Shown here: piece after piece, positions 9,164 through 31,370 of the stretch
How positions within the stretch are numbered: the stretch's first letter is position 1
How the letters are laid out: every line of letters starts with the position of its first letter
Source: Chloroflexota bacterium
Lineage (GTDB): Bacteria > Chloroflexota > Anaerolineae > Anaerolineales > UBA11579
DNA: 64,000 bases
Direction: 5' to 3'
Assembly (NCBI GenBank): GCA_013112575.1
Contig: JABFGG010000003.1
Coordinates: 152,898-216,897 of the forward strand
Notes under the pieces: model-generated
Database searches by the model: none
Told to the model about the DNA's origin: nothing
The model's input: only the letters and a program-made list of their open reading frames with translations
Position numbers and translations under genes: made by a program

Positions 9164-9769
9164 TTAGGAATCAATCCAGGGATGAGACCGTTCCCAATCA
9201 CCAAAATATACGAACTCGTTGAGGGCTTTGCGTTGACGGGGGGCGGTTTCGCGTTCGGCTAAGTCTTCATCAAGCTGATCGGGTGTGCCTAGATATCCTA
9301 AGGCTAACATGGTGACGGGGTCGTAGTCCTCAGGGATGTTGAAGGCTTCGTAGGCTTTCTGGCGGCTGAAGCCGGCCATGGGGTGGGCGTAGAGGTTCAT
9401 GGAGACAGCCTGGGTGAGCAGGTTGGAGATGGCCATACCGAGGTCGTGGCGGGCATGTGCGTTATCCCGATGTTTATAGTCAAAGAAGGTCTTGGCGATG
9501 GCGAGGATTAAAACAGGGGCGTCTTTGGCCCAGCGGCTGTTGCCTTCAGAGAGAAGGTCAAGCAGCTGCTGATATTCGTTCGGGTGGTCTTTGGTAGCAA
9601 CGATAAACACCCAGGGTTGCTCGTTGCGTGAGGAGGGCGCCCAGCGAGCAGCTTCAAAGAGTGAAAGCAGATTTTCATGGCTGACCGGTTTGTCTGCAAA
9701 GGCGCGAGGGCTCCAGCGCAGTTCGATGAGTTCGTGAATAGGGTGCTGGTTGTCTGCAGCTTTGGGCAT
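9164..9769 (-). CDS. nitroreductase family protein
   Basis: RWSPRAF motif, about 200 aa, typical NADH/FMN nitroreductase layout. Confidence 0.85.
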   Translation of the reverse strand: MPKAADNQHPIHELIELRWSPRAFADKPVSHENLLSLFEAARWAPSSRNEQPWVFIVATKDHPNEYQQLLDLLSEGNSRWAKDAPVLILAIAKTFFDYKHRDNAHARHDLGMAISNLLTQAVSMNLYAHPMAGFSRQKAYEAFNIPEDYDPVTMLALGYLGTPDQLDEDLAERETAPRQRKALNEFVYFGDWERSHPWIDS

Positions 9770-9783
9770 AGTAGCTCACTCGA

Positions 9784-10611: not shown

Positions 10612-10759
10612 AGCCCTTTTTGGTGTTTATGAGCGACTCATGTGTAAATGGCAATAAGAATATGGGTATTGCAGGAATACCAGGGGATGGGCAAATGGAC
10701 CTATCCGCAATACAATGAAGCTGCAAAATGGATAGTGTGTGTAAGAGGAGAAGGAAGAA

Positions 10760-11677: not shown

Positions 11678-11693
11678 ATATTCCTGAAATATA

Positions 11694-11723
11694 CAAAGAG
11701 ACCTGTCTTGACAGGTCTCTTTG
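11694..11723. terminator. bidirectional terminator between convergent genes
   Basis: 13-bp perfect stem CAAAGAGACCTGT/ACAGGTCTCTTTG, 4-nt loop, T-rich tail. Confidence 0.65.
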
Positions 11724-11726
11724 TTG

Positions 11727-13166
11727 TTAAGCGGTTGCCTGGGCGGCACGGCGCTCGTATTGCAGCCCGACAAAGCTGATAAACAAAGCGAGGCCGATCA
11801 GGGAGGCTGTTACAAGGAAGGTGTCTTGCATACCTCCCAGTTGGAAAACAGGGGAAGCGGTGGTGGCTCCGCCGGGTAAGGGGGCGTTGTTATAAGCTAG
11901 CGTACGAAAAGCCCAGAAAGCCCCGAGGAGGGCAATGCCGGTGGTTTGCCCCAGTGTGCGCGTGATGGAAAGCAGGCCCGAAGCGATGCCCAGGCGTTCA
12001 TTGGGGACGGCACCCATGATTGCGCTGTTATTAGGGGACTGGAAGATGCCCATGCCAATACCAATGGGTGCCATGCGCAGGAGATAACCGATTTCGCTAG
12101 TATCTGTGGAGAGGGTGGTCATGGCGAGATAGCCGGATGCGATAACCAGCAGTCCGGTAATGGTGATGGGGCGCGTGCCAAAGCGATCGGAAAGGGAACC
12201 GGAGATGGGTGCAGTGATGCCCATGGCAATGGGCACGATGGCGAACAGGATGCCAACTTTCTGGGTTGTGAATCCCAGAACATTCTCTAAATAAAAGGGT
12301 ACCAAAATGAGTGCCCCGGCAATACAGATAAATGTGAGCAGGCCGGTAGAGATATTGACGGTAAATAAGGTGGTGCGGAAGATGTGCAGGTCGATCATGG
12401 GCTGTTCGGCATGCATTTCTATATAAATGAAGATAAAGAGGAAAAGCACCCATACAGCCAGGAGAACCAGCACAAGCGGGTCGTTGAGGCCGAGATTTTG
12501 ACCGAGTGTCAGGCCTAGCAACAAAGCCAATAAACTGATGAATAGCGTGATCGCTCCAGCAAAATCAAAACGTTGGCCCCCTTCCGGGTGGAAGTCTGGA
12601 ATGAAACGCAGGGCCATGATCGTGCCGATAATGCCGATGGGCAGGTTAACAAAGAAGATCCAGTGCCAATTGAGGTTTTCAATGATGAAACCACCCAGCA
12701 CAGGACCAGTGACAATGCCAATAGAGACTAAGGAACCGTTGATGCCCAGGGCGCGGCCACGCTCCTGAGGGGGGAAGGATTCTGTGACGATGGCAAAGCC
12801 CAGGGCCAGGACCATGGAAGCTCCTACAGCCTGCACAACACGGAAGGCGATCAGCCAATGCACGGTGGGAGAGAAACCACATAATACGGAACCGATGGTG
12901 AAAACCACGAAGCCAGCAGTGAAGATCTGCTTTTTACCGATCATGTCTCCCAGGCGACCAACACTGAGCATGAGGGTGGTTTGGGTGAGGAGGTAAGCGA
13001 GGACAACCCATTGCACTGTGGGGAAGTCGGTTTGCAGCTCGCGCACGAGTGTGGGCAGGGACACGTTGACGATCGAACCATCGACCGTGGCAAGAAAAAG
13101 ACTCATGCCGACAGCTGCCATAACGTACCATTTGCGCGAATAATCCACTGCTTGGGAAGCTTGCAT
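11727..13166 (-). CDS. MFS transporter, DHA2 (EmrB/QacA-type, 14-TMS) drug:H+ antiporter family
   Basis: 479 aa, about 14 hydrophobic segments, GRLGDMIGKK motif in loop 2-3. Confidence 0.85.
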   Translation of the reverse strand: MQASQAVDYSRKWYVMAAVGMSLFLATVDGSIVNVSLPTLVRELQTDFPTVQWVVLAYLLTQTTLMLSVGRLGDMIGKKQIFTAGFVVFTIGSVLCGFSPTVHWLIAFRVVQAVGASMVLALGFAIVTESFPPQERGRALGINGSLVSIGIVTGPVLGGFIIENLNWHWIFFVNLPIGIIGTIMALRFIPDFHPEGGQRFDFAGAITLFISLLALLLGLTLGQNLGLNDPLVLVLLAVWVLFLFIFIYIEMHAEQPMIDLHIFRTTLFTVNISTGLLTFICIAGALILVPFYLENVLGFTTQKVGILFAIVPIAMGITAPISGSLSDRFGTRPITITGLLVIASGYLAMTTLSTDTSEIGYLLRMAPIGIGMGIFQSPNNSAIMGAVPNERLGIASGLLSITRTLGQTTGIALLGAFWAFRTLAYNNAPLPGGATTASPVFQLGGMQDTFLVTASLIGLALFISFVGLQYERRAAQATA

Positions 13167-13335: not shown

Positions 13336-13371
13336 AAAATTGTGTAACCTTTTAGTACTAGTTTACGTTAT
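13336..13371 (+). promoter_or_regulatory. candidate ECF-type promoter AAAATTG-TGTAAC-N17-CGTTAT
   Basis: TGTAAC at 13343-13348 and CGTTAT at 13366-13371. Same architecture and flanks as the motifs upstream of the sigma fusion and both beta-helix genes. Confidence 0.4.
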
Positions 13372-13446: not shown

Positions 13447-14121
13447 GTGAAACCTTTGAAACAAACCCGTTTATTCTTTTTTGGTCTGGCGATATTGCTG
13501 GCCTCTGTAGCCTGTGGCCTGGGTGATGTAACCGGCTTGATCGGTGGAGGCGGGGCATCTGGCCCAGAAGGCTCTGTATACTATGATGACTTTTCGAGTA
13601 CGTCGAGTGGTTGGGCCCAGTATGATGACTTCGATGGCATCAATGACTACGCCGATGGCACTTACCGTATCCTGGTGAACGACACTGAGTATTTCTCCTG
13701 GAGCATCATCGACGAAACTTTCAGTGATGCCAGTATTGAAGTTCAGGTTGTGGGAATGGGCGGCCCCTTTGATGCCGAGGCTGGCATTATATGCCGCTAT
13801 GTGGACGATAATAATTTCTATTTAATGACCATCACTGCGGATGGGTTCTATGCCATTTCGAAGTTCGTCAATAATGAATTCACAGCGCTAACCGGTAATG
13901 GTGATTACGCTGAAAGCAGCCTTATCAATCAGGGTAATTCGAGCAATGCCTTGCGTGCGGACTGTGTTGGTTCAACTCTGAGCCTGTATGTGAATGGGAC
14001 ACTGGTGGACTCGGTAACTGACTCGTCTTTAACCAGTGGTGATGTTGGTCTGGTAGCCGGTACGTTCACCGAACCGGGGTCTGATATCATTTTCGACGAC
14101 TTTACTGTTTATAACCCCTAA
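13447..14121 (+). CDS. lipoprotein consisting of the jelly-roll domain alone, paralog 2
   Basis: GTG start after GAGGAGGAAGAA. Lipobox LASVAC. Ends GDVGLVAGTFTEPGSDIIFDDFTVYNP. Confidence 0.7.
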   Translation: MKPLKQTRLFFFGLAILLASVACGLGDVTGLIGGGGASGPEGSVYYDDFSSTSSGWAQYDDFDGINDYADGTYRILVNDTEYFSWSIIDETFSDASIEVQVVGMGGPFDAEAGIICRYVDDNNFYLMTITADGFYAISKFVNNEFTALTGNGDYAESSLINQGNSSNALRADCVGSTLSLYVNGTLVDSVTDSSLTSGDVGLVAGTFTEPGSDIIFDDFTVYNP

Positions 14122-14251: not shown

Positions 14252-15532
14252 ATGATGTTCAAGCAATGTGTGACCTTGCATAAATCCTGGTTTTCTATCC
14301 TTCTGCTGGCATTTTTTATAGGTGCCTGTGCAGCCCCGCCTACCGCGGAAGAGGATAAATCCTTGCCGGTTTTGCCTACCCTGCCAACCGAAGAAGAAGA
14401 TGTGCTTGCGCCTCCCGCTTTGGTGGTTCCTGAGGAAGAAGTCAATCCCATAGAAGAAAGCAGCGGACAACAAAGCCCTCAAGAATTGCTGGAGGCCGGC
14501 AATGCTGCAGAAGTGGCAGGTGATCTCGAGTCTGCATTGGGCTATTATGACCTGGCAATCCAGACAGCTCCAGAATACCCGGAAGCGTATTACACGCGGG
14601 CGCGTTTGTTCGCCGATTTGGCCCAGCCCTTGCTGGCGATAGAAGACTATAACCGGGCTATCGAACTGCAGCCGCAATGGGCATTAGCTTTCTATGGGCG
14701 CGGCGTGGCTTATTTTAATGCGGGAGACGGACAGCAGGCTGTGCTGGACCTGTCGGAAGCGATCCGCATCGATCCCACTATTGCCGAGGCCTACCGCGAT
14801 CGCGCCATTGTGGAACGCGGTTTGTACCTGCCCGAGTCGGTGATCGCTGATTTGCAAGTGTATCTGGCGCTGGCCCCTGATGCAGAAGACCGGCCGGATA
14901 TTGAAGCCTTGATTGGTGAATTGGAAGATGAGATTCTGCGCCTTGAAGTTTCTACGGAAGGCTTACCCTTTTTTGACGATTTCAGTGACAACTTGGCAAG
15001 CTGGTTCGACTCTACCGTACCGGAGTTGGGTGAAGTGGGCGAGGGCAAGCTGGACAGCGGCGGCTATCGTATTACCGTTGATGATGATCGTTTTGCCATT
15101 TGGGCGCGTACCGGGGCAAGTTTTACTGATATAGCTATTAATGTAGATGCGACCAAAGTTGGGGGGGATGATGATAATTTTTATGGTGTGATCTGTCGCT
15201 ATCAGAATATTGAGAATTTTTATGCTCTACTGGTGAGCAGTGATGGCTTCTATGGCATCGCCAAACGCCTTGACGGGGGTTCATTGGAGGCTTTCCGCGG
15301 TGGTCTGGAGCCAAGTGATGTGATCAATAAGGGCAGCGGGACCAATCGCATTCGGGCAGTGTGTGCACAGAGTACGATCAAGCTGTACGTCAATGATGTG
15401 TTGTTGATGCAGGTCACGGATAGCTCGATTCCCTTTGGGGACGTGGCGATGATCGCGGGTACTTACGATGTGCCCGGTACGGATATCCTGTTTGACAATT
15501 GGCAGGTAGAAGCGGCTTTGCCAACAGATTGA
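14252..15532 (+). CDS. lipoprotein with TPR repeats and C-terminal jelly-roll domain, paralog 3
   Basis: Lipobox FIGAC. About 4 TPR units (AYYTRARLF..., AFYGRGVAYF..., AYRDRAIV). Ends GDVAMIAGTYDVPGTDILFDNWQVEAALP. Confidence 0.75.
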   Translation: MMFKQCVTLHKSWFSILLLAFFIGACAAPPTAEEDKSLPVLPTLPTEEEDVLAPPALVVPEEEVNPIEESSGQQSPQELLEAGNAAEVAGDLESALGYYDLAIQTAPEYPEAYYTRARLFADLAQPLLAIEDYNRAIELQPQWALAFYGRGVAYFNAGDGQQAVLDLSEAIRIDPTIAEAYRDRAIVERGLYLPESVIADLQVYLALAPDAEDRPDIEALIGELEDEILRLEVSTEGLPFFDDFSDNLASWFDSTVPELGEVGEGKLDSGGYRITVDDDRFAIWARTGASFTDIAINVDATKVGGDDDNFYGVICRYQNIENFYALLVSSDGFYGIAKRLDGGSLEAFRGGLEPSDVINKGSGTNRIRAVCAQSTIKLYVNDVLLMQVTDSSIPFGDVAMIAGTYDVPGTDILFDNWQVEAALPTD

Positions 15533-18610: not shown

Positions 18611-18765
18611 GGTAAACCTAGTATTTTTAGAATTAGTATTGAATTTTCATGGTTGATGAGCTGTTTGTCAAGCTTACACATCACTAAGCTAATTGATATG
18701 GCTCATTGGCTAAGGTATAGTTAGACTGAGGTAGTTGGTTGGGAGGCCCATTGCAAGGAGCGGAT

Positions 18766-19569
18766 ATGAGATCTGATGATCGCTTGGTTTTGACCTGTTT
18801 CGCAATCGTACTTGGATGTGGAGTTCTGATGGCATGCCTGGTAACGATGGGGAGCATAGGAATGATCGGGTGGACAGGCACAGTTCTGCAAGAGACATCG
18901 CAAGCCTACCAGACTAAAGCGGTCGAAACCGAGCAAGCTTACCAGGTAGATATCAAAGAAGCAGAAATGCTGTTTGATGAAGCTAAAGATTGGGAAGTTG
19001 TATTTAGTGATAGTTTTGATACAAATGAGAATGGCTGGGAGGATGACGCGTTTTCTTATGACTTGGTAGAAGGGGAGGTTGAGGTTGCCGATGGCAAGTA
19101 TTATTGGGATATGGAAGCCATTGAAGGTTTTATCTATTACGATTACCCTGAAATTGATGTTTTGGATGATTTTTACGTTGAAGTGGAGGCTGAACAATCT
19201 CGCGGTCCGGTCAATGGACAATACGGCTTAATATTTCTATATGCCAGCGGCAATTACTATTACTACTTTACAATCACTGAAGATCGCCGTTTTCAAGTTT
19301 ATCTACTCAGAGTCGGAAAGTGGGAAAGTATCATTCCACTCACTTTTAGTGAAGCGATCCAACCGGGAGAAAAGAATAAGCTGGCAATCATAGCAATAGA
19401 GGAAGACCTTTACTTTTATATCAACGACGCCTTCGTGCAATACGTTGGTAGTTCGTTATTGCTTCGCGGTCGAGTGGGGCTACTCACTGGTTTAAGGTTG
19501 GAAGGCGACACAGCTGAATTCGCGTTTGACAATTTTGAAGTGCGCGTACCGCCAGACGCGGGGGAATAA
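18766..19569 (+). CDS. membrane-anchored protein with C-terminal jelly-roll domain, paralog 4
   Basis: ATG at 18766 after AAGGAG. TM anchor LVLTCFAIVLGCGVLMACLV. Ends GRVGLLTGLRLEGDTAEFAFDNFEVRVPP. Confidence 0.65.
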   Translation: MRSDDRLVLTCFAIVLGCGVLMACLVTMGSIGMIGWTGTVLQETSQAYQTKAVETEQAYQVDIKEAEMLFDEAKDWEVVFSDSFDTNENGWEDDAFSYDLVEGEVEVADGKYYWDMEAIEGFIYYDYPEIDVLDDFYVEVEAEQSRGPVNGQYGLIFLYASGNYYYYFTITEDRRFQVYLLRVGKWESIIPLTFSEAIQPGEKNKLAIIAIEEDLYFYINDAFVQYVGSSLLLRGRVGLLTGLRLEGDTAEFAFDNFEVRVPPDAGE

Positions 19570-20160: not shown

Positions 20161-22317
20161 TTAGGGGCAGATCACTTGTTGTTGCTGATTGAGATAACAG
20201 GGGATGGGTGTGTCCTCCGGTGCGGGCCGGTCGGATGTGGGCTTTGGTGTGGGGGTGGGTGGCTGCGGGACAGTAATCAGGCGCATCTCACTGAATGGAA
20301 TGCTGGGCGTGACGTCATCGCTATCCAGCCAGCAGTTGGTGTTGGCTACGTTGGGGTGAGAAGCTACCAGCCAATCTTGATTGCCATTGCCGGTGAAACC
20401 AGCACCGATCAATTGCGTTGATACACCCGAAGCTAAATTGCTGACGAGGCCATATTGCGGCCCAGGGCCGTTGTAACAGGGTGTAGTTGTAATGATGGTT
20501 ACTGTGCTGGGGCCGCCGGGTGTGGGGGTGCCGATGACAATGTCTGGGTCTTCCAGGGTCAGGAGGCTGGCACCAGTTTCGTAAGCGCCCGCATCACAAC
20601 TTGCTCCAACCGGGCGGCCAAAAGTACGTTGATCTTCCCCTAAACAAGAGCCGACCACGATGTCTACGGCTTCACTATCTGGGTCCAGGGCCAGGGTCCA
20701 GGTTTCGCCGCCATTGTCAGCCAGTGGGCCAATGCGCAATTCGGCGGGGGTAAAAGTCTCCGGGAAACCGCAGGTAGCATCGGAATCAACATTAGTGCCC
20801 TGTAGCGGGAAAGGAATGGCGCTGGGGCCGCTGCTGATGTTGCAGTCATCTAGACCATTTTCGGCGGCTAAGATACTGCGCACGAGGCTGACAGTATTTC
20901 CCCCCCTGAAGGCGGAAAGGCCAGATTCCCCGTTACGGGCGAGGGTGACAAAGCGCATAGCCAGGTCGCCATCGACTGCAATAATGCCGCTGTTGGTGTT
21001 TCCGGTGCTGGTTGAATTCAGCATGGTCATGTCGCCACGGTTTTCGATGCCGTCAAGTTCATTGTCGGCGATAAGGCTGCGATTGATGTAGGCTCGGGCG
21101 AGCGTGCCATTGTAGATGCCAGCATTACCGCCGTCATTCGCTCTGATGGTAGAGTCGAGAACCACTAAGTCGCCCGTTTCTGTCTGGTTCAGGATGCCGC
21201 CATTATGGTTATTTTCGATCAAGGAAGAATAAACGCGCAGCCAGCCCCGGCTTCCAATGCCGCCACCCAGGCTGGTGCCAGCATAGAAAGAGGCATTGTC
21301 GCGAACGGTGACCTCTTCAAGTGTGGCTTCGCTGGTTTCATCAATGAGGATGCCTGTGCGCGGGTTACTGTAAACGTTTCCTCCATTCATGGTGAGAATG
21401 GCATCGTCACTTAGTACGATACCCTCTTCATTCTCGAAGACATCTGTGTTTGTCAGGGTCGCTAAGCCCCCATCGATCCACAGGCCGGGATGATTCATGC
21501 TAAGGATATTGCCGTGCCCGCTGATATCTACACCCGTCAGGTTAGCGGTACCACTACTATAGACACCATAGGTGCCATTGTCCCTGACGATAGTGCCATT
21601 CATGGCCAGCAGGCCAGCGCTGCTGACCCCTGACATATAGTTGTTGGCAACTTCGCCACCCTGAATGTCCAGGTTGCCGCCAGAAACCCCGGCCCCGAAA
21701 GAGCCCTCAAGCTGAGTGGTGCCTGTCACATTTACGTTGATGAGCGTAACTAGGCCGGAACTGGAACTGCGGATGCCGTTGCCAATGCTGTCGACTACAT
21801 TGACATCTTCAACTATCACATCGGCGTTACCGCGAATTTCAATACCACTGCCGGGAGAATTGCCTGAGGCATTCTGGACTGTGAGATCTTCGATACGCAC
21901 GCGGGCGTCACCTGAAGCATAAAAAACTCCATACAATCCGCCGCCATCAATGAAGGTGCTGTCGCGGCCAGCTCCGGTAATGATCAAATTGTAGTCAATG
22001 CCCAGGGCGCTGGAACCTTCACGGAAACCTGTTTCAGGATAGGTTCCGGCAGCAATGAAGATTTGATCGTCATCGTCTGAGCGGGAAACGGCCTCTTGTA
22101 CAGTCAGGCAGGGGTCGTCAATGAAGGCACAGGAATTGCTGTCATCACCATCTGTGGCAACATACCACAAAGATGACTCTCGTTCTTCAGAAATGCCCGG
22201 TGTAGGGGTGCTGGTAGGCAAATTGCCCAGGATGTCCCGGGCCAGGTCCAATGGGCCGCAGGCCAGGGCTGTGAGCGTCATGGCGAAGACGCTGATGATA
22301 AGCTTTTTCTTGTACAT
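20161..22317 (-). CDS. right-handed parallel beta-helix lipoprotein with choice-of-anchor-Q-like region and C-terminal SH3-like/PT-linker/Cys-loop module (H1)
   Basis: Lipobox LTALAC. Many beta-helix repeats (N.A..GGGI-like turns). LADNGGETWTLAL...GEDQRTFGRPVGASCDAGAYE. The C-terminal approx 105 aa is shared with H2 and the sigma fusion. Confidence 0.8.
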   Translation of the reverse strand: MYKKKLIISVFAMTLTALACGPLDLARDILGNLPTSTPTPGISEERESSLWYVATDGDDSNSCAFIDDPCLTVQEAVSRSDDDDQIFIAAGTYPETGFREGSSALGIDYNLIITGAGRDSTFIDGGGLYGVFYASGDARVRIEDLTVQNASGNSPGSGIEIRGNADVIVEDVNVVDSIGNGIRSSSSGLVTLINVNVTGTTQLEGSFGAGVSGGNLDIQGGEVANNYMSGVSSAGLLAMNGTIVRDNGTYGVYSSGTANLTGVDISGHGNILSMNHPGLWIDGGLATLTNTDVFENEEGIVLSDDAILTMNGGNVYSNPRTGILIDETSEATLEEVTVRDNASFYAGTSLGGGIGSRGWLRVYSSLIENNHNGGILNQTETGDLVVLDSTIRANDGGNAGIYNGTLARAYINRSLIADNELDGIENRGDMTMLNSTSTGNTNSGIIAVDGDLAMRFVTLARNGESGLSAFRGGNTVSLVRSILAAENGLDDCNISSGPSAIPFPLQGTNVDSDATCGFPETFTPAELRIGPLADNGGETWTLALDPDSEAVDIVVGSCLGEDQRTFGRPVGASCDAGAYETGASLLTLEDPDIVIGTPTPGGPSTVTIITTTPCYNGPGPQYGLVSNLASGVSTQLIGAGFTGNGNQDWLVASHPNVANTNCWLDSDDVTPSIPFSEMRLITVPQPPTPTPKPTSDRPAPEDTPIPCYLNQQQQVICP

Positions 22318-22351
22318 GGTTTAGATCCTCTCTCTCGTGAGTTCTACTTAA

Positions 22352-22380
22352 TAAACGTATTCAGGTCAAATTTGTTATCA
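22352..22380 (-). promoter_or_regulatory. candidate ECF-type promoter TGATAAC-N16-CGTTTA for H1
   Basis: The reverse complement of 22374-22380 is TGATAAC and of 22352-22357 is CGTTTA. Lies about 35 nt upstream of the ATG. Confidence 0.45.
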
Positions 22381-22422
22381 ATTTTCTGTGCAGTATTACG
22401 TGTAGATGATTGATCTACTTTG

Positions 22423-23196
22423 TTACTTCTTCGTGAAAATGTGCCCGCAAAGGGGAGTTGTTGCAGAACCGAAGGGTGGTGAACCCAACCAGATATCGCT
22501 CAAAATCAGACGGCCTTGATCATCGATCAGGTAGGTTCCGGTGCCGTCGATGTTCTCGGGGAGATAATTGACGCCATCAGCTTGAATTTTGATGGTCTCT
22601 GTATCAAAACTGTATTCTCCGACATAATCGATGTAGGCTTCAAAGGGCCGCCAGGTGACACTGAGGCTGCCGTCGGCAGAGAAGATGAGTTCGCCAATGG
22701 GTTCCTCTACTGAGGTTTCATCGTAAGTGTCACATGTTTGTTGGGCCTTCTCTGTCCAGATGCCGACGAGCGGGTTGCCATCTAAGGAATAAACGGTGAC
22801 CTTTTCTTCGAAGACCTGCTGGCCTGAGGAAACAGAGGCTTGTACAGTGAAAGTCGCTCCGTTACCGACTTCGTCATCGGCAGTTAACAAACCGGTTTGT
22901 GTATCGATCTCGACTCCCTTTGGGGCATCTGCCAGAGACCAGTCTGCACTGGCTTCCACTGTTTCCCAGAATACACAACATTCAAGGGTAGCAAGCCTTA
23001 ATTCCAGTTGTCCGCCTGCTTCGATTTGCAGATTGCCACTTACGGGTGGACCTTCGATCTTTTGGGGGACTATTGAGATGGCCTCTGCATTCTCAAGGGT
23101 CGGTTGGGCGACCTGGCCGACTGAAGAACATGCCAGGGTGGCTACCAACAGTGCCAAAATGCTGATCCAATACCTTTTTATATAGATTGCTTTCAT
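22423..23196 (-). CDS. lipoprotein of unknown function, downstream of H2
   Basis: ATG at 23194-23196 after GAGGAGA. Signal/lipobox LLVATLACSS. The track start at 23265 adds an unlikely 23-aa extension. Confidence 0.6.
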   Translation of the reverse strand: MKAIYIKRYWISILALLVATLACSSVGQVAQPTLENAEAISIVPQKIEGPPVSGNLQIEAGGQLELRLATLECCVFWETVEASADWSLADAPKGVEIDTQTGLLTADDEVGNGATFTVQASVSSGQQVFEEKVTVYSLDGNPLVGIWTEKAQQTCDTYDETSVEEPIGELIFSADGSLSVTWRPFEAYIDYVGEYSFDTETIKIQADGVNYLPENIDGTGTYLIDDQGRLILSDIWLGSPPFGSATTPLCGHIFTKK

Positions 23197-23268
23197 GTTT
23201 AAACTCTCCTCTGCTCTAAAGGTAAACCCTTTTAGGAAGAATTTGTAACAGTTCTTGAGGGCCATAGC

Positions 23269-25479
23269 CTAGCAGGTGGGCACGCCGTTGCCGTTCAAGG
23301 GACACGGAGTAGGATCTTTGGCCGGTTCACGCGTCTCGTCCGGGGTAGGGAGGGGCGTGGGTGTGGGGCGGGCGGGAACGGTTATCAAGCGCATTTCGCC
23401 CAGTGGGATGCCAGTCGTGACGTTGTCGCCGGGCAGCCAGCAATTGACATTTTCGGCTGTAGGATGCGTGCCTACTACCCAGGCCTGATTGCCATTGCCG
23501 GTAAAACCTGCGCCGACCAATTCCATGGTGGTGCCTGCCGAGAAGTTATTGACAAAGCCCCAATCCGGGCCGGGGCCTGTGTAGCAGGGGGTGTCGGGGA
23601 TAAGCACGGTAATAGTAGTGGCGCCTCCCGGCTCTTCTTCGGCTGCTGTTGCAGGCGCCGCAGCAACAGCACCAGTCTCGTAAGCACCTACATCGCAACC
23701 TGCACCTACAGGTCGACCAAAATCACGCTGGTCTATAGGAGGACAGCTTCCGGTAGCAGCGTCGATGGCAGGGCTACTGGCTAACAAAGCATGAGTCATG
23801 GTCAGGCCGCCATTATCTGCCAATCCACCAAGGAGCAGGGCTGTGGGGGAATAGGTGGCTTCTACGCCGCAAGAGCCATCTGTATCGATGTTGACGCCGG
23901 AAGTAGTGCTGCCCTCCAGGCTAAGGAGGTTGATGCAGTCACTGGGAGCGTTGCGGGCGATGATGGTGTTGTCGACGTTGATGCCGGAAGTCAAAATGCC
24001 GAACTGGGTGTTCTCGGCGATGGTGGAGTAGGAGATCGTGGAATTGCCCCATAAGTATGCTCCCAACCCATTATTGTTGCTGATGGTGGTGTTGAGAATC
24101 CGAATCTCTCCGTCGCCTTCTACGCCTGCCCTGAAGCCCTCACCCGCAGCACCCTCAAGGGAGTTGTGCGCGATGAGGCTGTTATCGATGTGGAGAATGC
24201 CACCCAAGTTATAGATGGCGGGATAAGGCTCTTCGGGGTATACACTAGAGTAAAGGACATTGGTATAGCTCATATCCACAGTGCCGGTGGAATCATTTCT
24301 GATGGCTCCATCGCGATTGCGGAGCAATTCACTGTGGGTTATGGTCAGTGCCCCAAAATTGCTGATCGTCCAATTGCGCGGGCCGAGGGTGCCATTGTTC
24401 TCGAAGGTAGTCCCTTCAACGGTTGCCGACCCAGTGTCGGAGATGGAAAGGGCGGTTCCTGGATGATCGCGAACCGTGCTATCGATTAAGGTCAGGCTGC
24501 CGCCGGGGGAGACGTGGATGCCCCTATCGTTCTCCCGGATATTGCTGTTGTCGATCTGCATGGTGCTGTGGGTATCGATGCCGTAAAGATTGGCAGGCGC
24601 AAGATGGTTGTGGTGAACTCCAACAAAACTCAATTGCGCCGTCCCCATGCGGTGTTCGAGCCCCGCGAACTGATTCTGGGTCAGGGTCGTGCCTGTCAGG
24701 CTGATATTGCCCCAATTGAATATGCCAGTCTTATCGTTAGCAGCGATCTCCCCTCCATCGACGGTCATATCACCGAAATTGAGGATGCCGTGCTCGTGCC
24801 AGGTGCTCTCTGCCGGGCCGAAGCCCAGACCGTGTGCCCCGCTGATGTTGACGTTGATCAGCTCAACAGGCCCACTGCCGCGGTTCTCCACACCATTGCC
24901 AACGCAATCCACGAGGTTGACATCGACAACGCGTATTTCTGCGGTGGAGGTTTCCCCAATGTCGATGCAGTCACGTGCATTTTGTAGGGTCAGGTCCCGA
25001 ATAATGATGCGGCCTGCGCCGTCTATGGGGAAACCATTACTAACTTCGCCATCCACTCTGCGGTTAATGATGGTTGAGTCTGTGCCGGCGCCCATGATGG
25101 TGATGTTTCCCTCAAGTGAGCGGTAATAACTGTCATCCATCGTGTAGGTGCCTGGGCCAATGCGGACCACATGGTGGTTACGGCCTTCGGGGTCTGTCAC
25201 CGACAGAGCCAGACTAAGCGCGCGACCAACCGTTGCGCAAGGTGCAGGTTGGCAGTTGTTGAGATCTGATCCATCCGTGGCAACATGCCATTCCTGGATG
25301 AACAAATCGATGCCACCAACCGGTTCAGGTGGCGGACCACTTACCAGGGTCGGCGGCACGTCGATGATTGGCAATGGCGTTGGGCCTCCCAAAGTGCGAG
25401 GCATGTTGCAGGCTGTGAGTACCAATAATGTCAGAATGGCAATAGCAAAACTAAATTTCTTCTTGTAGGCAGGGTTCAT
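23269..25479 (-). CDS. right-handed parallel beta-helix lipoprotein, paralog of H1 (H2)
   Basis: Lipobox LVLTAC, beta-helix repeats, LADNGGLTMTHAL...IDQRDFGRPVGAGCDVGAYE, and the same C-terminal module as H1. Confidence 0.8.
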   Translation of the reverse strand: MNPAYKKKFSFAIAILTLLVLTACNMPRTLGGPTPLPIIDVPPTLVSGPPPEPVGGIDLFIQEWHVATDGSDLNNCQPAPCATVGRALSLALSVTDPEGRNHHVVRIGPGTYTMDDSYYRSLEGNITIMGAGTDSTIINRRVDGEVSNGFPIDGAGRIIIRDLTLQNARDCIDIGETSTAEIRVVDVNLVDCVGNGVENRGSGPVELINVNISGAHGLGFGPAESTWHEHGILNFGDMTVDGGEIAANDKTGIFNWGNISLTGTTLTQNQFAGLEHRMGTAQLSFVGVHHNHLAPANLYGIDTHSTMQIDNSNIRENDRGIHVSPGGSLTLIDSTVRDHPGTALSISDTGSATVEGTTFENNGTLGPRNWTISNFGALTITHSELLRNRDGAIRNDSTGTVDMSYTNVLYSSVYPEEPYPAIYNLGGILHIDNSLIAHNSLEGAAGEGFRAGVEGDGEIRILNTTISNNNGLGAYLWGNSTISYSTIAENTQFGILTSGINVDNTIIARNAPSDCINLLSLEGSTTSGVNIDTDGSCGVEATYSPTALLLGGLADNGGLTMTHALLASSPAIDAATGSCPPIDQRDFGRPVGAGCDVGAYETGAVAAAPATAAEEEPGGATTITVLIPDTPCYTGPGPDWGFVNNFSAGTTMELVGAGFTGNGNQAWVVGTHPTAENVNCWLPGDNVTTGIPLGEMRLITVPARPTPTPLPTPDETREPAKDPTPCPLNGNGVPTC

Positions 25480-25514
25480 GGGTTAGATCCTCTCTCTCGT
25501 TAGGTTCTGAGTAA

Positions 25515-25543
25515 TAAACGTAATAAGGGCCAAATAGTTATCA
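25515..25543 (-). promoter_or_regulatory. candidate ECF-type promoter TGATAAC-N16-CGTTTA for H2
   Basis: Same motif and spacing as upstream of H1. The about 70-nt leaders of H1 and H2 are nearly identical. Confidence 0.45.
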
Positions 25544-25819
25544 TTTTTCTTGTTTCCTGACATCTTTGGGTGATTTGACAGTGATCTTGATCTCAATAGA
25601 TGTGTCCTCATTCTCGTTCTTCTCCACTACATGATGGCGAAAAGTGTAGTTTCCAGTTTGATTTGTTTGTTGTTCTAAAAAGTCCAAAAGTTCGTAAATA
25701 GAGGCAAAATTGTTTCGTTCCTCTTTCCCTGGCTCTTCCAGCGAGGCTCGCCAAACTAACTGACCTTGTTCTTCAAGCTGCCATAAGCGCAGCATATAAG
25801 CCAGATAATCAGGCGGCAC
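25541..25819 (-). CDS. small hypothetical protein (LRLWQ...WRASLE...FASIYELLDFLEQQ motif)
   Basis: 92-aa ORF with a GTG start and no clear RBS. The N-terminal motif recalls a small conserved-hypothetical family, from memory only. Confidence 0.35.
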   Translation of the reverse strand: MPPDYLAYMLRLWQLEEQGQLVWRASLEEPGKEERNNFASIYELLDFLEQQTNQTGNYTFRHHVVEKNENEDTSIEIKITVKSPKDVRKQEK

Positions 25820-25948
25820 TTGAGAATACCAACTTGCTGTTAATCAGTGCCGGGTTGCAAAATGCTACAATATGTTGGTTAGGCGATGCAATTCTCATAG
25901 TCATTTGGCCAAAATTGTTGCGTGAATTGCAGTATAAATACCAAAACA

Positions 25949-25991
25949 GCGTTTCCAAAGGATTGCCAGGGCGTTTCCAACGCGTTTAAAA
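25949..25991 (+). promoter_or_regulatory. three phased direct repeats GCGTTTCCAA / GCGTTTCCAA / GCGTTTAAAA (22-bp and 11-bp spacing)
   Basis: Repeat starts at 25949, 25971 and 25982, read directly. Lies immediately upstream of the SARP/BTAD regulator start. Confidence 0.4.
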
Positions 25992-26003
25992 CCGAATCAT
26001 TTT

Positions 26004-28043
26004 ATGGAAGAAAAAGCGATAAGCATCCGTTTACTGGGATCATTCCAGGCTGAGTTGGGCGAAGGGCAGAAAGCCACATTTCGTTCCGATAGTGAACGCG
26101 CCCTATTGGCATTTCTCCTGATGGAAAAAGATCGCCCGCATCGCAGAGAGAGCCTGGGGGCTTTACTGTGGCCAGAAGTTAGCGAAAAACAAGCGCGCAA
26201 CAATTTGAGGGTGGCTTTACACCGCATGCGCCAGACGATGGAGGCCAATGGGCGGGAAGTCGTAATTGCCAACAACCGCGAACTGCAATTTAATGAAGAT
26301 GCGGATGTATGGTTGGATGTGTGGGCTTTTGAAGATGCCTTGCAGTCCGTGGAGTCTCATGACCATAAGGGCCTGGAAAGTTGTGTCAAGTGCCAGGAAA
26401 AACTCAGTGAAGCTGTTGAGCTTTACCGTGGCCCCTTTTTGCAGGGCTTCATGCTGGAAGATAGCCAGCCTTTCCTTGAATGGGTAGTTTTAAAGCAAGA
26501 ATGGTTACACCGCCAGGCATTGGAAACACTGGCAATACTTGCTGATGTACACGTGGCTTTGGAAGATTATGAGAAGGCAGAAGCCTTTGCGCGACGCCAA
26601 CTGACTCTGGAGCCCTGGAGAGAAGAGGCACATCGCCAACTGATGCATGCTCTGGCTCTGCGAGGTGAACGCAGTGCGGCGTTGGCACAATATGAAAGCT
26701 GCCGGGCTGTTCTGGAAGAAGAGTTGGGCGCGCCGCCTTCCGATACGACTGAGAAGCTTGTAGAAAGAATCCGTAGTGGAGAAGGTTATAGTGAAGAGCA
26801 AAGGGGTAGTACGAGAGTTAAACGAAAAGTTGAATTGACTGCAAGCACACGAGGATTCGACCGCCGTTGGCTTGTTGGCATAGCAGGAGTTGTTTTGTTG
26901 GTTGTGTTGGGTATTGTTGGCTTCGGAAGCATTTGGAGTAATTCCAAAAATGAAAAAAGGGGAGGGATTGCCTGGGAGTTTGAAGATGCGGGCGATACAG
27001 AAGGTTGGGTGCCTTTATATGACCTTGGCCCTTTGACCGTAAGAAGAGGACAACTGCATATCAATTCAACGGGTGATGACCCTTATTTATATATCCCGGA
27101 AGGTGTGGCATTCGATGCTCGAGAGCATCCGTTAATAGAGATGCGGATGAAAGTGTCTGATGGATATGTGGCCCAGGTGTTTTTCCACAATGAAGGTGAA
27201 ATTGATTTTGTGGAGGACAAATCTCAAGTTTTCCCCATTGTCCCAGACGGGGAGTTTCACACTTATATGCTTGATATGTCTGCACAGGATGGGTGGCAGG
27301 GTATGATCAGTGGGCTGCGCCTTGACCCCACGGATACAGTGGCTTCCGTGGAAATTGACTATATCCGCATTGTTCCCAAGGTAGAGGCGGAGAGCGCAGG
27401 TTTAATTGGGGGAAACGTGTATGACAATTTCAACGAACTGGGCTTCGATGGAGCCTATGATTCGGGCAAGTGGATCGAGCCGGATTGGCCGGGGTTAAAA
27501 TGTGAGATCTTCCAGCAAGATGGTGTGTTGCGGGCCTCTAATCATGAATCATTGATGGGATCGGGATGCACTTTTCGAGCCAAGCGACCGCTGGCAGTTG
27601 CTGGCGGTGAATTGGGCGATTATGCGGCAGATCTTCAACTGCTTGATACTCACAATGGCGGCTTTGCAGGGACCGTGTTGCGCATAACGACTGAGTTTGA
27701 AGGCGGGGGCTGGGCGGCGAGTTGTGGAATATTGGCGGATTTTGATGCCCTGAACGTGCAGTTTGACGTCAGCGATGCGCGGCTTAGCGAAGACGATTTT
27801 TTGTATCAGGCGAACCTTCCGGCTGACTACAATACCTGGTACGAAGTTGTGCTGCAAATTGATGAAGGGGCAAAGCGAATTACGTGCATGGTGGATGGAC
27901 AGGTTGTTGGGGAATACCTGCCCGAGAATGCTACCGAACTGGCTTCCGCTCTGATGAATCGCGAACTCGGTGTGTGGCACGAAACAGATGCTATGGCCAC
28001 CACGCTAATCGATGATGTCGAAATCCAAGTGAATTCAAGATAG
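26004..28043 (+). CDS. membrane-anchored SARP/BTAD-family transcriptional regulator with extracytoplasmic LamG/jelly-roll-like sensor region
   Basis: OmpR-type winged helix (IRLLGSFQAELGEG...LRVALHRMRQ), BTAD (LYRGPFL...EEAHRQLMHALALRGERSAALAQYESCRAVLEEELG), one TM helix (WLVGIAGVVLLVVLGIVGF), then about 370 aa outside. Confidence 0.75.
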   Translation: MEEKAISIRLLGSFQAELGEGQKATFRSDSERALLAFLLMEKDRPHRRESLGALLWPEVSEKQARNNLRVALHRMRQTMEANGREVVIANNRELQFNEDADVWLDVWAFEDALQSVESHDHKGLESCVKCQEKLSEAVELYRGPFLQGFMLEDSQPFLEWVVLKQEWLHRQALETLAILADVHVALEDYEKAEAFARRQLTLEPWREEAHRQLMHALALRGERSAALAQYESCRAVLEEELGAPPSDTTEKLVERIRSGEGYSEEQRGSTRVKRKVELTASTRGFDRRWLVGIAGVVLLVVLGIVGFGSIWSNSKNEKRGGIAWEFEDAGDTEGWVPLYDLGPLTVRRGQLHINSTGDDPYLYIPEGVAFDAREHPLIEMRMKVSDGYVAQVFFHNEGEIDFVEDKSQVFPIVPDGEFHTYMLDMSAQDGWQGMISGLRLDPTDTVASVEIDYIRIVPKVEAESAGLIGGNVYDNFNELGFDGAYDSGKWIEPDWPGLKCEIFQQDGVLRASNHESLMGSGCTFRAKRPLAVAGGELGDYAADLQLLDTHNGGFAGTVLRITTEFEGGGWAASCGILADFDALNVQFDVSDARLSEDDFLYQANLPADYNTWYEVVLQIDEGAKRITCMVDGQVVGEYLPENATELASALMNRELGVWHETDAMATTLIDDVEIQVNSR

Positions 28044-28214
28044 CAAAAAAGAGCTAGCCCATCATTGAAAATATAAGTCCCCCTTTTGAGATAGAGTGAT
28101 TCTAAACTGGGTATTTGAGAGCTTCCTCGCTACGCTCGGAATGACAGCTTTAGGTTCTGCAAGAAGTTTGTACCCCAAATGGTAACGGGAGCAACTAGCT
28201 GGATAAGTTTAGTA

Positions 28215-29675
28215 TCAGGGGCAGTATTGCTGCTGGTCTATGGCACAATCCGTAGGTTGTGGATCGTCACCAGGTTGGCGGGGGTCGTCTGGGGTGACGG
28301 TGGGTGTAGTTGTGGGTTTGGGAGGAATGAAGATGTAAGGAAGAACAGGGTTATCTTCGTCCAGGCTGATATCCCCCGCAATCAGCCAGCAATTCACATT
28401 CTCGATGTCCGGATGCGGTCCAACGTAATAAGGAACGTTAAAGCCCTCCCCAACAATCTTGATCTGAGTGCCAGCGGTGAGAGTGTTGACAATACCCCAC
28501 TGTAAGCCGGGACCTGAATAGCAGGTTGTATCTTCTTCTGCGGTTCCCAAAACTTCATCATCATCATCTGCTGGTTCATCCCCACCATCTGGTGGGAGGG
28601 GCGGAGAAACGTTCTCTGAATTCTCTGGGGTGCCTTCGAGCGCGGCGGTTGACAACGGTGTTTCTGTAATGAAAAGGGCTTCGACAGCTTCTTCTTCCGT
28701 TTCCTCTGGGGCTTCTACAGGCGCCACCGGAGGGGGAGGTGGTGGAGGGTCAAATATGGCCGCGAAAAGATTACTTTGTAAGGCTGCAATAACGCCTAGC
28801 ACGATAGTGGATGCAACGATGGCTACGCCACCGCCAGCAAGGACCTTGGGGCGGGCATTGCGCCAGCGTTTTCTACGGCGAAGGCGCTGCGTAGTGCCTG
28901 TGCGTTTGAGGATGCGCGGGCCCAAGCCAGCGGGCGGGATGAGCGGGATGAAGGCACTGAAGATCGTGGATACCGAAAGAAGATTGCGCTGGCGTTCCTG
29001 GCAGTATTCACAATCTTTGACATGCTGGCGGACGAGACGATCCTGAGCGCTGTCGGCTTCATTGTCATGGATGACGCCGATAAGTTCGCCCATGGTGGAA
29101 CATTCGGTGGAGGTTTCTTCCAGCAGCAAGCGAATGCCATAGGCTTCCTGGAATTTGTTGCGAGCACGATGGAGCAGAACCTTGACGTAGTCAATGGTAG
29201 TCTCCATGATCTCGGCGATCTCGTTGTAAGCATATTTGTGAAACTCGCGCAACAATAAAACCTCACGATACTGGGGGGCCAGTTTCTCTAGGGTTTTGCG
29301 CACACGTGCGGCAATATCGCCTTGAGAGGCAGCGCGTTCCGGGTCATTGTTGGGATCGCGGATGTTTTCAATCTGGTCGGCGGAATCGATCATATCGCGG
29401 TTCTGTCGGGTCTCATCAATAAAGCGATTGTGAACGATGCGAAAGACCCAGGCGCGGAAATTGTAGGGTGGGCCAAGACGCTTAAGGTTAGCGTGGGCGC
29501 GTATGAAAGCATCTTGTGTAAGGTCTTCGGCCCAGTCCTGATCATAAGCGAGGGTAACCGCATAGTTATAAACCGCCTGGAAATGCTCTTCAAAGAGATC
29601 TGCAAAAGCTTGCGGATCGCCCTGGGCGGCTTGCTGCACGAGGCGAGCATTAAGGTCAGTATGTGAGTCGTTCAC
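28215..29675 (-). CDS. ECF sigma factor fused to zinc anti-sigma (HxxxCxxC), TM helix and extracytoplasmic SH3-like module
   Basis: Region 2 (DLTQDAFIRAH...WVFRIVHNRFID), region 4 (QYREVLLLREFHKYAYNEIAEIM), HVKDCEYC, TM VLAGGGVAIVASTIVLGVIAAL, PPPPPPP linker. The C-terminal module is homologous to the H1/H2 termini. GTG start. Confidence 0.8.
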   Translation of the reverse strand: MNDSHTDLNARLVQQAAQGDPQAFADLFEEHFQAVYNYAVTLAYDQDWAEDLTQDAFIRAHANLKRLGPPYNFRAWVFRIVHNRFIDETRQNRDMIDSADQIENIRDPNNDPERAASQGDIAARVRKTLEKLAPQYREVLLLREFHKYAYNEIAEIMETTIDYVKVLLHRARNKFQEAYGIRLLLEETSTECSTMGELIGVIHDNEADSAQDRLVRQHVKDCEYCQERQRNLLSVSTIFSAFIPLIPPAGLGPRILKRTGTTQRLRRRKRWRNARPKVLAGGGVAIVASTIVLGVIAALQSNLFAAIFDPPPPPPPVAPVEAPEETEEEAVEALFITETPLSTAALEGTPENSENVSPPLPPDGGDEPADDDDEVLGTAEEDTTCYSGPGLQWGIVNTLTAGTQIKIVGEGFNVPYYVGPHPDIENVNCWLIAGDISLDEDNPVLPYIFIPPKPTTTPTVTPDDPRQPGDDPQPTDCAIDQQQYCP

Positions 29676-29685
29676 GTTTATCTAA

Positions 29686-29715
29686 ATAACGGGGTTTAGT
29701 GGGGTTTTGTTATCA
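29686..29715 (-). promoter_or_regulatory. candidate autoregulatory ECF-type promoter TGATAAC-N17-CGTTAT
   Basis: The reverse complement of 29709-29715 is TGATAAC and of 29686-29691 is CGTTAT. It lies only about 10 nt before the GTG start, implying a very short leader. Confidence 0.4.
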
Positions 29716-29876
29716 ATTTATTAGAAATTGGTTTTATGTAGTTGGTGCTTGCTAAAAGGCACTAGTTTTGACTATTCAGACTGTACCGCATTTGAGAAAA
29801 GAACGCAATGAGAGGAGGGTTTTATAGGCATCTTTCGCAGATTAGCAAAAGTACAGAAAGGTATAATCTGGCGGCA

Positions 29877-31370
29877 ATGGACAAGCAGCGAAGAAAATGG
29901 CTATGGCCAACAACACTGGGTGCTATCGCTTTACTGGGATTCGGATTGGTGTGGGCCAGTACGATCTGGGGGGCGGGTTTGATATCCGATTCTTTCCAGT
30001 ATGTATCCACGGCGCGTAACCTGGCAGGCGGGTTGGGTTTCCAGTTTGAGGTTGGAAAGAGTTTATTGCCCCTGGTGCATTACCCGCCTTTGTTTCCTTC
30101 TGTACTGGCAGGTTTTGAGATTGCGGGAATCGATGCTTTATTGGGAGCAAGGTTGATCAATGCCCTGCTTTTTGGGGCCAACGCTGTTTTGGTGGGTGTG
30201 AGCATAGAGAAAATCACAGCGTCCAAAGTCTGGGGGAGTATAGGCGCTTTGTTGACAGCAATTGCGGCAGTATTGCTGGGAGTACATAGTTGGGCGTTGA
30301 GTGAGCCTTTGTACATTTTCCTTGGTTTAGTAGGGTGGTTGATTTTGTCACAGTATCTGGAAAATAATCAATTGCGATTGCTCGTAGCAGCCAGTGGATT
30401 ATTTGGATTGGCATTTTTGGCTCGTTATGCTGGGGTAGCGATCGTAGTAGCAGGCGCGTTGGCAGTATTGCTTTTCTCTACTCAGAACTGGCGGAAGCGC
30501 GGGATGGATGCCGCGCTGCTAGGCATCATCAGCGTGAGTGTGTCAGGTCTGTGGGCCGTGCGCATCACATTGCTGGCAGGTAGTTTTGGGGCGCGTGAAT
30601 TGCAATACATCCCGCTAACTGCCGGGAATATCGAATCCCTCTTGAACAATATCCTGACCTGGGTTGTGCCTTTCCCGCTGGTGAACGGGCGCGAGGCATG
30701 GATTTTATTTGGTTTATTTATCGGTCTAGTTGTTTTTGGCTTGTATGTGCGAGTGAGCGATTTGAAGGTAAAAGAGATAGTGTGGTCTGAAAAGACGTTG
30801 TTTCGATTGCATAGCCTGTATTTCTGGGTGTATCCGGTATCGGTTGTGGCGGCCAAGATGTTTTTGGATCGCGGCATAGGTTTGAATGACCGCATGCTCT
30901 CCCCGATGTTAGTGTCCCTGATGATCGTGGGCGTGAGTATTGTGGCACAAGTGTGGAAAATGGATCAACGGCGATGGGTACGTGTAGTATTGGTCAGCGG
31001 AGCGGTGCTGTTCACAGCCTTCTATGGGGTGGAAACAGGACTGGCCATGCGTAGTTTTCGTGGAGAGGGGTTGGGCCTGGCGCGGGCGGATTGGCACAGC
31101 GCAGAATCCATTCAAGCTTTTGCAGATTTTGAGGATGAGGAATTCTATTCCAATTCACCTTCATCGCTTTATTTGTGGAGTTACAAGCCTGCCAACAACT
31201 TAAATTCATTTGCGCGAATGGCGGCGAGTGCTGATCCGGACAGAGCTTATATCGTGGTGTTTGCTCACGTCCCCACCAATAAGAACATTGAAGAAATGGC
31301 TGAAGGAGTAGAATTGGTTGTGGGGGATGAGGTGGCTGAGGTGTATTTATTTGTGCCCGAGGGGGAGTAG
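29877..31370 (+). CDS. polytopic membrane protein, GT-C (ArnT/PMT-like) glycosyltransferase candidate
   Basis: About 12 TM helices. DS motif in the first extracytoplasmic loop (GLISDSFQYVSTARNL). Soluble C-terminal domain. The ATG at 29877 is preferred over the track start at 29808. Confidence 0.5.
   Translation: MDKQRRKWLWPTTLGAIALLGFGLVWASTIWGAGLISDSFQYVSTARNLAGGLGFQFEVGKSLLPLVHYPPLFPSVLAGFEIAGIDALLGARLINALLFGANAVLVGVSIEKITASKVWGSIGALLTAIAAVLLGVHSWALSEPLYIFLGLVGWLILSQYLENNQLRLLVAASGLFGLAFLARYAGVAIVVAGALAVLLFSTQNWRKRGMDAALLGIISVSVSGLWAVRITLLAGSFGARELQYIPLTAGNIESLLNNILTWVVPFPLVNGREAWILFGLFIGLVVFGLYVRVSDLKVKEIVWSEKTLFRLHSLYFWVYPVSVVAAKMFLDRGIGLNDRMLSPMLVSLMIVGVSIVAQVWKMDQRRWVRVVLVSGAVLFTAFYGVETGLAMRSFRGEGLGLARADWHSAESIQAFADFEDEEFYSNSPSSLYLWSYKPANNLNSFARMAASADPDRAYIVVFAHVPTNKNIEEMAEGVELVVGDEVAEVYLFVPEGE

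Follow-up and report, generated by a model that had tools for sequence, protein, structure and literature searches.

An SH3b-like module common to a fused ECF sigma/anti-sigma factor and its predicted cargo lipoproteins in a Chloroflexota bacterium

Why should a membrane-bound regulator carry, as its outer domain, the same module that ends the surface proteins encoded beside it? This question is raised by a 64,000-nucleotide (nt) stretch of contig JABFGG010000003.1 of a Chloroflexota bacterium (assembly GCA_013112575.1, positions 152,898 to 216,897; hereafter the window), in which the module stands at the C-terminus of three minus-strand proteins: the beta-helix lipoproteins A and B, and C, a fusion of an extracytoplasmic function (ECF) sigma factor with its anti-sigma factor. 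The three modules are homologous, the three genes share a promoter motif, and the sensor module is matched to that of its neighbour at divergent loci. With slightly better than even confidence, we favour an autoregulated 'one-component' ECF system in which sensor and cargo share an extracytoplasmic ligand, and a change in its occupancy would lead to proteolytic release of sigma and expression of the regulon.

The termini of A and B were aligned with that of C by BLASTP with composition correction, which gave E = 2e-16 and E = 3e-20, respectively. Smith–Waterman scores of the cores only were 146 and 162, whereas shuffled sequences scored about 25 on average (standard deviation 5, maximum 59; z about 26), and chance or low-complexity similarity is ruled out by these values. 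A profile of the three modules recovered exactly three copies from the six-frame translation of the window, the next match having E = 0.01, and no additional copy was found in any frame. The initial annotation had proposed three homologous C-termini at these positions and had called for their alignment; the significant pairwise similarity bears it out, and its motif, C-Y-x-G-P-G ... G-x-G-F ... H-P ... N-x-N-C-W, is right as quoted. The '105-aa module' that it described was placed correctly but is not one domain. It is a composite of a core of about 70 residues, a Pro/Thr linker of 21–23 residues and a terminal Cys-x(8-10)-Cys loop. These units lie at 20266–20484, 20203–20265 and 20164–20202 in A, at 23374–23592, 23308–23373 and 23272–23307 in B, and at 28320–28529 (residues 383–452, by alignment and profile), 28251–28319 and 28218–28250 (the Cys-x8-Cys tail DCAIDQQQYCP) in C. 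The terminal Cys tail is likewise present in all three proteins, as had been noted, but in relatives it is exchanged for a CPVxF knot or an fn3-like domain. The core begins with C-(Y/W/F)-x-G-P-G and finishes with C-W, both cysteines being invariant in 53 diverse family members, and the conserved family ending is (L/F)x(I/V)xxPP(K/L)PT. C is 38–45% identical to A and B here and has a four-residue loop deletion; in the window lineage, sensor and cargo are 38–47% identical and show no excess of shared codons.

The fold of the module was predicted with AlphaFold2 (AF2). The model of the A module has a confident core of seven to eight strands (mean predicted local distance difference test score, pLDDT, 82), and the top 50 Foldseek matches in the Protein Data Bank (PDB) are all SH3, SH3b or SH3b-containing structures (2krs, 2kt8, 3npf, Abl and spectrin among them), with target-normalised template-modelling (TM) scores of 0.6–0.68 for single-domain targets and E-values of just 5e-3 to 0.1. 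By model and matches, the A module is an SH3-like small beta-barrel. A profile of 53 family sequences matched the PDB sequences 8b2g (E = 1e-3), 8b2h (2e-3) and 2krs (4e-3), over the first 26–32 positions only. Neither Pfam nor NCBIfam has a model for the module. The sole trace was Pfam SH3_3 (PF08239) on C, which did not reach the gathering score (E = 0.12, 13 bits against a cutoff of 27), and SH3_3 gave no match at all on the A and B modules. Because the AF2 model, the Foldseek matches and the profile matches all point to SH3b, the SH3 fold guessed at in the initial annotation is supported, and the core is predicted to be a divergent, unannotated SH3b-like family. Two of the profile matches, 8b2g and 8b2h, the closest relatives with a solved structure, are fungal SH3-like cell-wall-binding domains of GH24/GH184 muramidases; this domain has two disulfides, one of them keeping a C-terminal loop close to the binding pocket, and its ligand is a peptidoglycan-type peptide (PMC10394673). 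The module shares with the fungal and SH3b domains the SH3-like beta-barrel and an N-terminal C-x-x-G-P-G motif. It differs from known SH3b domains in falling below the SH3_3 threshold, in having its own (L/F)x(I/V)xxPP(K/L)PT ending and in its modular Cys-bounded tails.

The distribution of the module was determined by database searches. A word-index protein search returned five close relatives only, which understates the family, since an exhaustive HMMER search of 1.84 billion cluster representatives gave 755 proteins at E ≤ 1e-3 (85 at E ≤ 1e-10); the search for further module-ended proteins that had been proposed at the outset was thus productive. Architectures were surveyed in the best 150 of these 755 matches. 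About one-third of them have a clear beta-helix and/or choice-of-anchor Q domain followed by the core, a PPKPT-type linker and a Cys-bounded tail, many of these proteins carrying a lipobox, and sigma fusions account for two matches: P0008, orthologous to C at 77% identity, and the distant P0109. The tails of relatives vary: some have a Q-rich loop, others a CPVxF...C knot, and others an fn3-like domain that ends in GC(I/L/M)(F/A). The core is also found internally, in tandem or ahead of fn3-like domains, and the more distant matches are tandem SH3b-like repeats with NCRTGPG...CWxWG, typical of SH3b. Within the broader beta-helix family, just 7 of 102 homologues bear the module, the others ending in transmembrane anchors, dockerin, PKD or other domains, which fits the 'choice-of-anchor' concept. 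The taxonomic spread, taken from source names only, is Chloroflexi and Anaerolineae. No match was obtained when species-representative genomes were scanned with the module pattern, and a metagenome scan yielded one locus, L002, incomplete at its 5' end. In the choice-of-anchor Q homologues P0197, P0200, P0206, P0220, P0252 and P0258, the extreme C-terminus reads (F/Y)LP-x-(I/V/L)-x-(K/R), which may be another Chloroflexi C-terminal signal.

Gene C (28215–29675, minus strand) encodes 486 amino acids (aa) from a GTG start, and the product is 100% identical to a sigma factor recorded at NCBI as 'MAG: Chloroflexi bacterium' (MAG, metagenome-assembled genome). Residues 1–180 (29136–29675) contain Sigma70_r2 (5e-15) and Sigma70_r4_2 (4e-12) in Pfam and match NCBIfam sigma70-ECF TIGR02937 with 105 bits against a cutoff of 43; the sigma part thus has sigma2 and sigma4 only, as expected of an ECF factor. 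The zinc-binding anti-sigma (ZAS) region follows at 28971–29108, with an H-x3-C-x2-C motif (HVKDCEYC, 29001–29024) and a weak zf-HC2 match (E = 0.049); zf-HC2 was scored in the homologues P0158, P0160, P0163, P0166 and others. A single transmembrane helix (residues 277–309, 28749–28847) was located in a 19-residue Kyte–Doolittle window with a peak of 2.34, and the same scan gave no second such segment. Between the helix and the module lies an extracytoplasmic linker (28524–28748), Pro-rich (PPPPPPP) and then acidic. C is therefore predicted to be a single polypeptide in which an ECF sigma and a ZAS domain precede a membrane helix, and a long linker leads from the helix to an SH3b-like domain outside the cytoplasm that has the two invariant cysteines.

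The two cargo genes lie downstream of C on the same strand. Gene A (20161–22317) encodes a lipoprotein of 718 aa with a right-handed beta-helix (20833–22170) and a choice-of-anchor Q domain (20575–20736), and gene B (23269–25479) a lipoprotein of 736 aa with a right-handed beta-helix (Pfam Beta_helix, 2e-16) and a choice-of-anchor Q domain (23674–23835). They are full-length paralogues (36% identity, E = 1e-101). Both score above the cutoff of 25 bits for NCBIfam NF041518 choice_anch_Q (A 57.3 bits, B 77.8 bits), and a lipobox was read by eye in each after a hydrophobic N-terminal segment (...LTALAC-G in A, ...LVLTAC-N in B). Their homologues are named choice-of-anchor Q or CSLREA domain proteins. 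A and B thus resemble the choice-of-anchor Q/CSLREA/Chlamydia-PMP-like beta-helix surface proteins in the NF041518 score, while the module at their end is that of the small minority of homologues counted above. In the full-length AF2 model of A (pLDDT 83), a long beta-helix, the anchor-Q domain, a disordered linker and the SH3-like domain follow one another. The fold has only a generic likeness (TM-score 0.2–0.4) to carbohydrate-active beta-helices (lacto-N-biosidases, pectate/alginate lyases, epimerases) and phage tailspikes, and an adhesin-like or glycan-active role of A and B is possible.

The regulatory link between C and the cargo was analyzed through promoter motifs. ECF promoters usually carry 'AAC' in the -35 and 'CGT' in the -10 element. 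The window holds exactly three copies of the motif TGATAAC-N16/17-CGTT, against 0.05 sites expected and never three in 100 shuffles. All three are minus-strand sites that immediately precede C (29688–29715, N17, ending 12 nt before the GTG start), B (25517–25543, N16) and A (22354–22380, N16). In the related contig L001, the motif recurs upstream of the sigma gene and of the orthologues B' and A', in the latter as TGATAAC-N16-TGTT. The sigma genes of L003 and L005 are likewise preceded by it, and the L004 sigma gene has the variant TGTAAC-N17-CGTT. Because A and B share this ECF-type promoter with C, the gene order is conserved in L001, and sigma and cargo are adjacent in L004, A and B are very probably under the control of C, as the initial annotation had supposed. 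P0016 in L008, a third protein with beta-helix, anchor Q and module encoded away from the A/B/C locus, has a further site about 65 nt ahead of its gene. P0016 apparently belongs to the same MAG as A, since the locus tags DWQ07_06570 and DWQ07_23075 have a common prefix, and it is apparently an unlinked member of the C regulon, judging from its upstream sequence. A looser variant, GGTAAC-N16-CGTTATAT, precedes P0019 in L011. No motif was found upstream of P0013 in L010, where the preceding gene (1–145) ends in ...PPPCNPQQQCP, a Cys-loop tail of the same kind, in tandem; module-bearing genes thus also occur in tandem without a promoter motif of their own. The 5' leaders of A and B, ribosome-binding site included, are nearly the same, GAGAGAGAGGATCTAA(A/C)CCATG; this leader is about 30 nt long, with the ribosome-binding site GAGAGAGAGGA. 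The sigma gene promoters (window 29676–29715, L001, L003 and L004) end just 9–14 nt before the start codon, which is GTG in the window, L001 and L003, so the sigma mRNA would be leaderless or nearly so. A related site, TGTAAC-N16-CGTT, stands on the plus strand at 13343–13369, upstream of a gene for a 224-aa DUF1080/3-keto-disaccharide-hydrolase-like protein (13447–14121), and is kept almost base for base in L001 (about 18061, minus strand); this gene may be a further member of the regulon or the target of another ECF sigma.

Is the pairing of sensor and cargo particular to this locus? In L001, the sigma gene is followed immediately, on the same strand, by both beta-helix genes. In L004, the distant C orthologue P0109 (N-terminal part E = 3e-86 to C) has a beta-helix/anchor-Q lipoprotein gene 70 nt downstream, and the two modules are 77% identical to each other in amino acids and about 30% identical to those of the window; they share 79% of nucleotides and 67% of the codons at identical residues. 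In L006, 48 nt separate the sigma fusion from the next gene, whose product is not a beta-helix protein and carries an SH3b-like module 42% identical to the sensor. In a neighbour-joining tree of the modules, those borne by sigma factors were monophyletic in 0 of 200 bootstrap replicates; each fell inside the cargo clade of its own locus at three divergent loci (200, 195 and 188 of 200 replicates). The sigma parts belong to a single family, which implies at least three separate re-matchings of a sensor to the cargo beside it, and the sequences indicate that the matching arose by repeated capture or concerted evolution. The tails vary together as well: CAIDQQQYCP in C and CYLNQQQQVICP in A, CPNPIIYPDTCTP in P0109 and CPNAKRYPQTCTP in P0131. 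In L001, a metagenome contig of long-read style, the sigma fusion (337 + 163 aa, 9034–10492) and the B orthologue (516 + 218 aa, 10715–12918) are each called as two overlapping or adjacent open reading frames (ORFs), probably through frameshift errors in Pro-rich regions.

These observations suggest how the system may operate. The sensor domain of C is a paralogue of the C-terminal targeting domain of A and B and also matches the module of P0016. It is therefore most likely that one ligand outside the cytoplasm is bound by both sensor and cargo. If SH3b domains are a guide, that ligand would be a peptide or glycan of the cell wall, or else a surface or substrate polysaccharide. Altered occupancy at the sensor would provoke regulated intramembrane proteolysis and free the sigma part, which would then act at the TGATAAC-N16/17-CGTT promoters of its own gene, of A, of B together with the 280-aa lipoprotein gene that follows it, and of P0016. 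Cargo might also displace the sensor and so close a feedback loop.

Known systems provide the precedents. For ECF52 fusions such as SCO4117 of Streptomyces coelicolor, activation by proteolysis has been proposed, and for IutY of Pseudomonas putida, a fused sigma/anti-sigma factor, release by Prc and RseP was shown (PMC5826349, PMC8999054). Like ECF52, ECF48, ECF53 and IutY, C is one, probably autoregulated, polypeptide with an ECF sigma, a zinc-finger anti-sigma, a transmembrane helix, a Pro-rich linker and a terminal binding domain, and it has each element of the ECF52-type arrangement. However, ECF52 is described as exclusive to Actinobacteria and has a smart00776 carbohydrate-binding module, whereas C comes from a Chloroflexi MAG and has an SH3b-like sensor; the likeness is one of architecture, and the cited ECF52 literature does not mention a sensor shared with regulon proteins. 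Such sharing is known from Clostridium thermocellum, in which RsgI sensors carry CBM3, PA14 or GH10 modules homologous to those of the regulated enzymes, the GH10 module of RsgI6 being 57% identical to Xyn10D (PMC4711584), and signalling is by proteolysis (PMC4711584, PMC10328401). The resemblance to C, an outer sensor homologous to modules of regulon proteins, is functional only: SigI and RsgI are separate proteins and sigma-I, of a different sigma family, lacks sigma4, whereas C is a fusion with sigma4, and the clostridial sensors bind plant polysaccharide and control secreted cellulosomal enzymes, whereas the predicted targets of C are lipoproteins. In Bacillus subtilis, RsgI and PBP1 carry the same kind of extracytoplasmic element, and the sensor reports on the sites of the effector (PMC9732909); these elements are disordered and stand on unrelated protein families, whereas the window modules are folded and homologous. 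By analogy, the architecture of ECF52 and IutY together with the RsgI precedents leads us to favour a sensor that shares its ligand with the cargo. Within the collection of papers searched, none combines an anti-sigma factor, SH3b and ECF. The ECF52-like fusion and the RsgI-like sharing of modules were known already; the phylum and the domain family are new, and the evolutionary evidence for matching is unusually clear. For an uncharacterised Chloroflexi ECF sigma, the analysis offers a concrete candidate regulon with promoter, sensor domain and targets. It also delimits an SH3b-like family that had no annotation and has two invariant cysteines, its 755 cluster representatives occurring mostly on beta-helix surface lipoproteins. 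The rule that a sensor is a copy of the cargo's binding module, known from clostridial RsgI, appears here in fused ECF sigmas of another phylum.

Several observations weigh against the shared-ligand reading. The matches to SH3 folds are consistent with one another but statistically weak (Foldseek E ≥ 5e-3; Pfam SH3_3 E = 0.12), and the promoters were assigned by motif logic only. L003 has the 77%-identical C orthologue without an adjoining cargo gene, and a sigma fusion is missing from the surroundings of most of the cargo genes examined (L008, L009 and L011). The sigma fusions of L005 and L007 have other ectodomains (SdrD_B, Ig-like) with no BLASTP match to their neighbours; since these share nothing detectable with adjacent proteins, sensor–cargo matching is not universal in the sigma family.

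A more specific form of the shared-ligand model, in which both sign and feedback are defined, is a titration homeostat; it corresponds to the competition suggested in the initial annotation. Identical binding sites in the envelope would be limited in number, and sensor and cargo would compete for them: free sites would keep sigma on, and accumulated cargo would displace the sensor and switch the system off. The same domain on regulator and products and the autoregulated regulon speak for it, as does the matching of modules and tails locus by locus, since rivalry for a single site would demand such a match. Yet identical affinity of C and A/B is not assured, given the four-residue loop deletion and 38–45% identity, and the documented precedent, RsgI of C. 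thermocellum, responds to substrate induction rather than competition (PMC4711584). We regard the homeostat as possible, though rather unlikely. It is equally tentative that the matching is actively maintained, the C-type ectodomain being repeatedly overwritten by, or co-evolving with, the targeting domain of the adjacent cargo, so that the regulator would measure free product sites. If so, one reusable SH3b-like module would make a self-titrating envelope homeostat, and such a design would be a portable rule of general use in ECF one-component systems. That sensor and neighbour were matched on three separate occasions is evidence of selection for the match, something hard to see in the clostridial system.

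The remaining alternatives give up the shared signal. The module might merely fasten proteins to the wall and so position C, with the signal sensed elsewhere, for example as redox state or zinc at the ZAS domain. ZAS domains can sense thiol stress, and such a role would suit the breadth of the family (755 representatives, diverse architectures, sometimes tandem), the place of the module in the 'anchor' slot of choice-of-anchor Q proteins (7 of 102 homologues) and the L003 sigma fusion with no cargo beside it. Mere anchoring would not need the repeated re-matching of sigma modules to their neighbours', however, and all three window copies fall in one promoter-defined regulon, with sigma–cargo pairing recurring in three divergent loci; we therefore consider it distinctly improbable. 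Still less credible is a C-terminal sorting or processing signal, in which a dedicated protease or attachment enzyme recognises the module and Cys tail and C serves as decoy or substrate. The extreme C-terminal position, equal to that of the sorting domains of choice-of-anchor families, and the conserved Pro/Thr linker with its short Cys-bounded tail are in its favour. On the other side, the module lacks the features of sortase, exosortase or T9SS C-terminal signals, having no hydrophobic helix or basic tail; its fold is a binding fold, and in relatives the core is internal, in tandem or placed before fn3-like domains. No sortase gene was found in the window, L001, L003 or L004, and no protease family among the flanking genes scanned. 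The 'processing machinery' of the initial annotation, with its dedicated protease or sortase, is therefore not supported and is the weaker half of that idea. The least probable option, which we consider highly doubtful, is direct homotypic contact, in which the cargo module binds the sensor module, possibly via the Cys tails, and gives product feedback without a third ligand. It would accord with the close identity of sensor and cargo in L004 (77% in amino acids, 79% in nucleotides, 67% identical codons at identical residues) and with the co-varying tails, but there is no sign of self-association, SH3b domains usually act as monomers, and sensor and cargo of the window lineage are only 38–47% identical, with no shared-codon excess.

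Other genes of the neighbourhood were also annotated. A gene for a 280-aa lipoprotein (22423–23265, minus strand) begins 3 nt beyond the stop codon of B, which makes co-transcription with B probable; it is absent from L001, and its product has no module, no Pfam family and no domain in common with its neighbours. Between the B gene and the next gene upstream, a 92-aa ORF (25541–25819, minus strand) matches no family and may not be a real gene, since 3 nt of the B promoter lie within the ORF's own stop codon at its 3' end. That next gene (26004–28043, plus strand), between C and B, encodes a SARP/BTAD-type regulator with a winged helix, a BTAD domain and one transmembrane helix (residues 284–314), and hence membrane-anchored; it is absent from the syntenic L001, and its ectodomain of about 350 aa has no family and nothing similar elsewhere in the window. 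Divergent from C, a multi-pass membrane protein (29808–31370, plus strand) has a weak match to PMT_2, a GT-C glycosyltransferase family (E = 1e-3). The position of this gene is kept in L001 (7510–8850, minus strand) and L003 (1–264, minus strand), even without cargo genes, and it is a matter of speculation whether its product glycosylates the Pro/Thr linkers. A LamG/DUF1080-like domain is common to four proteins, encoded at 10760–11677, 13447–14121, 14252–15532 (C-terminal half) and 18739–19569 (phmmer E 1e-5 to 4e-36); by sequence, they form a second paralogous family of extracytoplasmic modules in the same neighbourhood. GC skew is positive in every 2-kb bin of the window (1–64000) and reaches 0.34 at about 44–52 kb, which is unusually strong and uniform.

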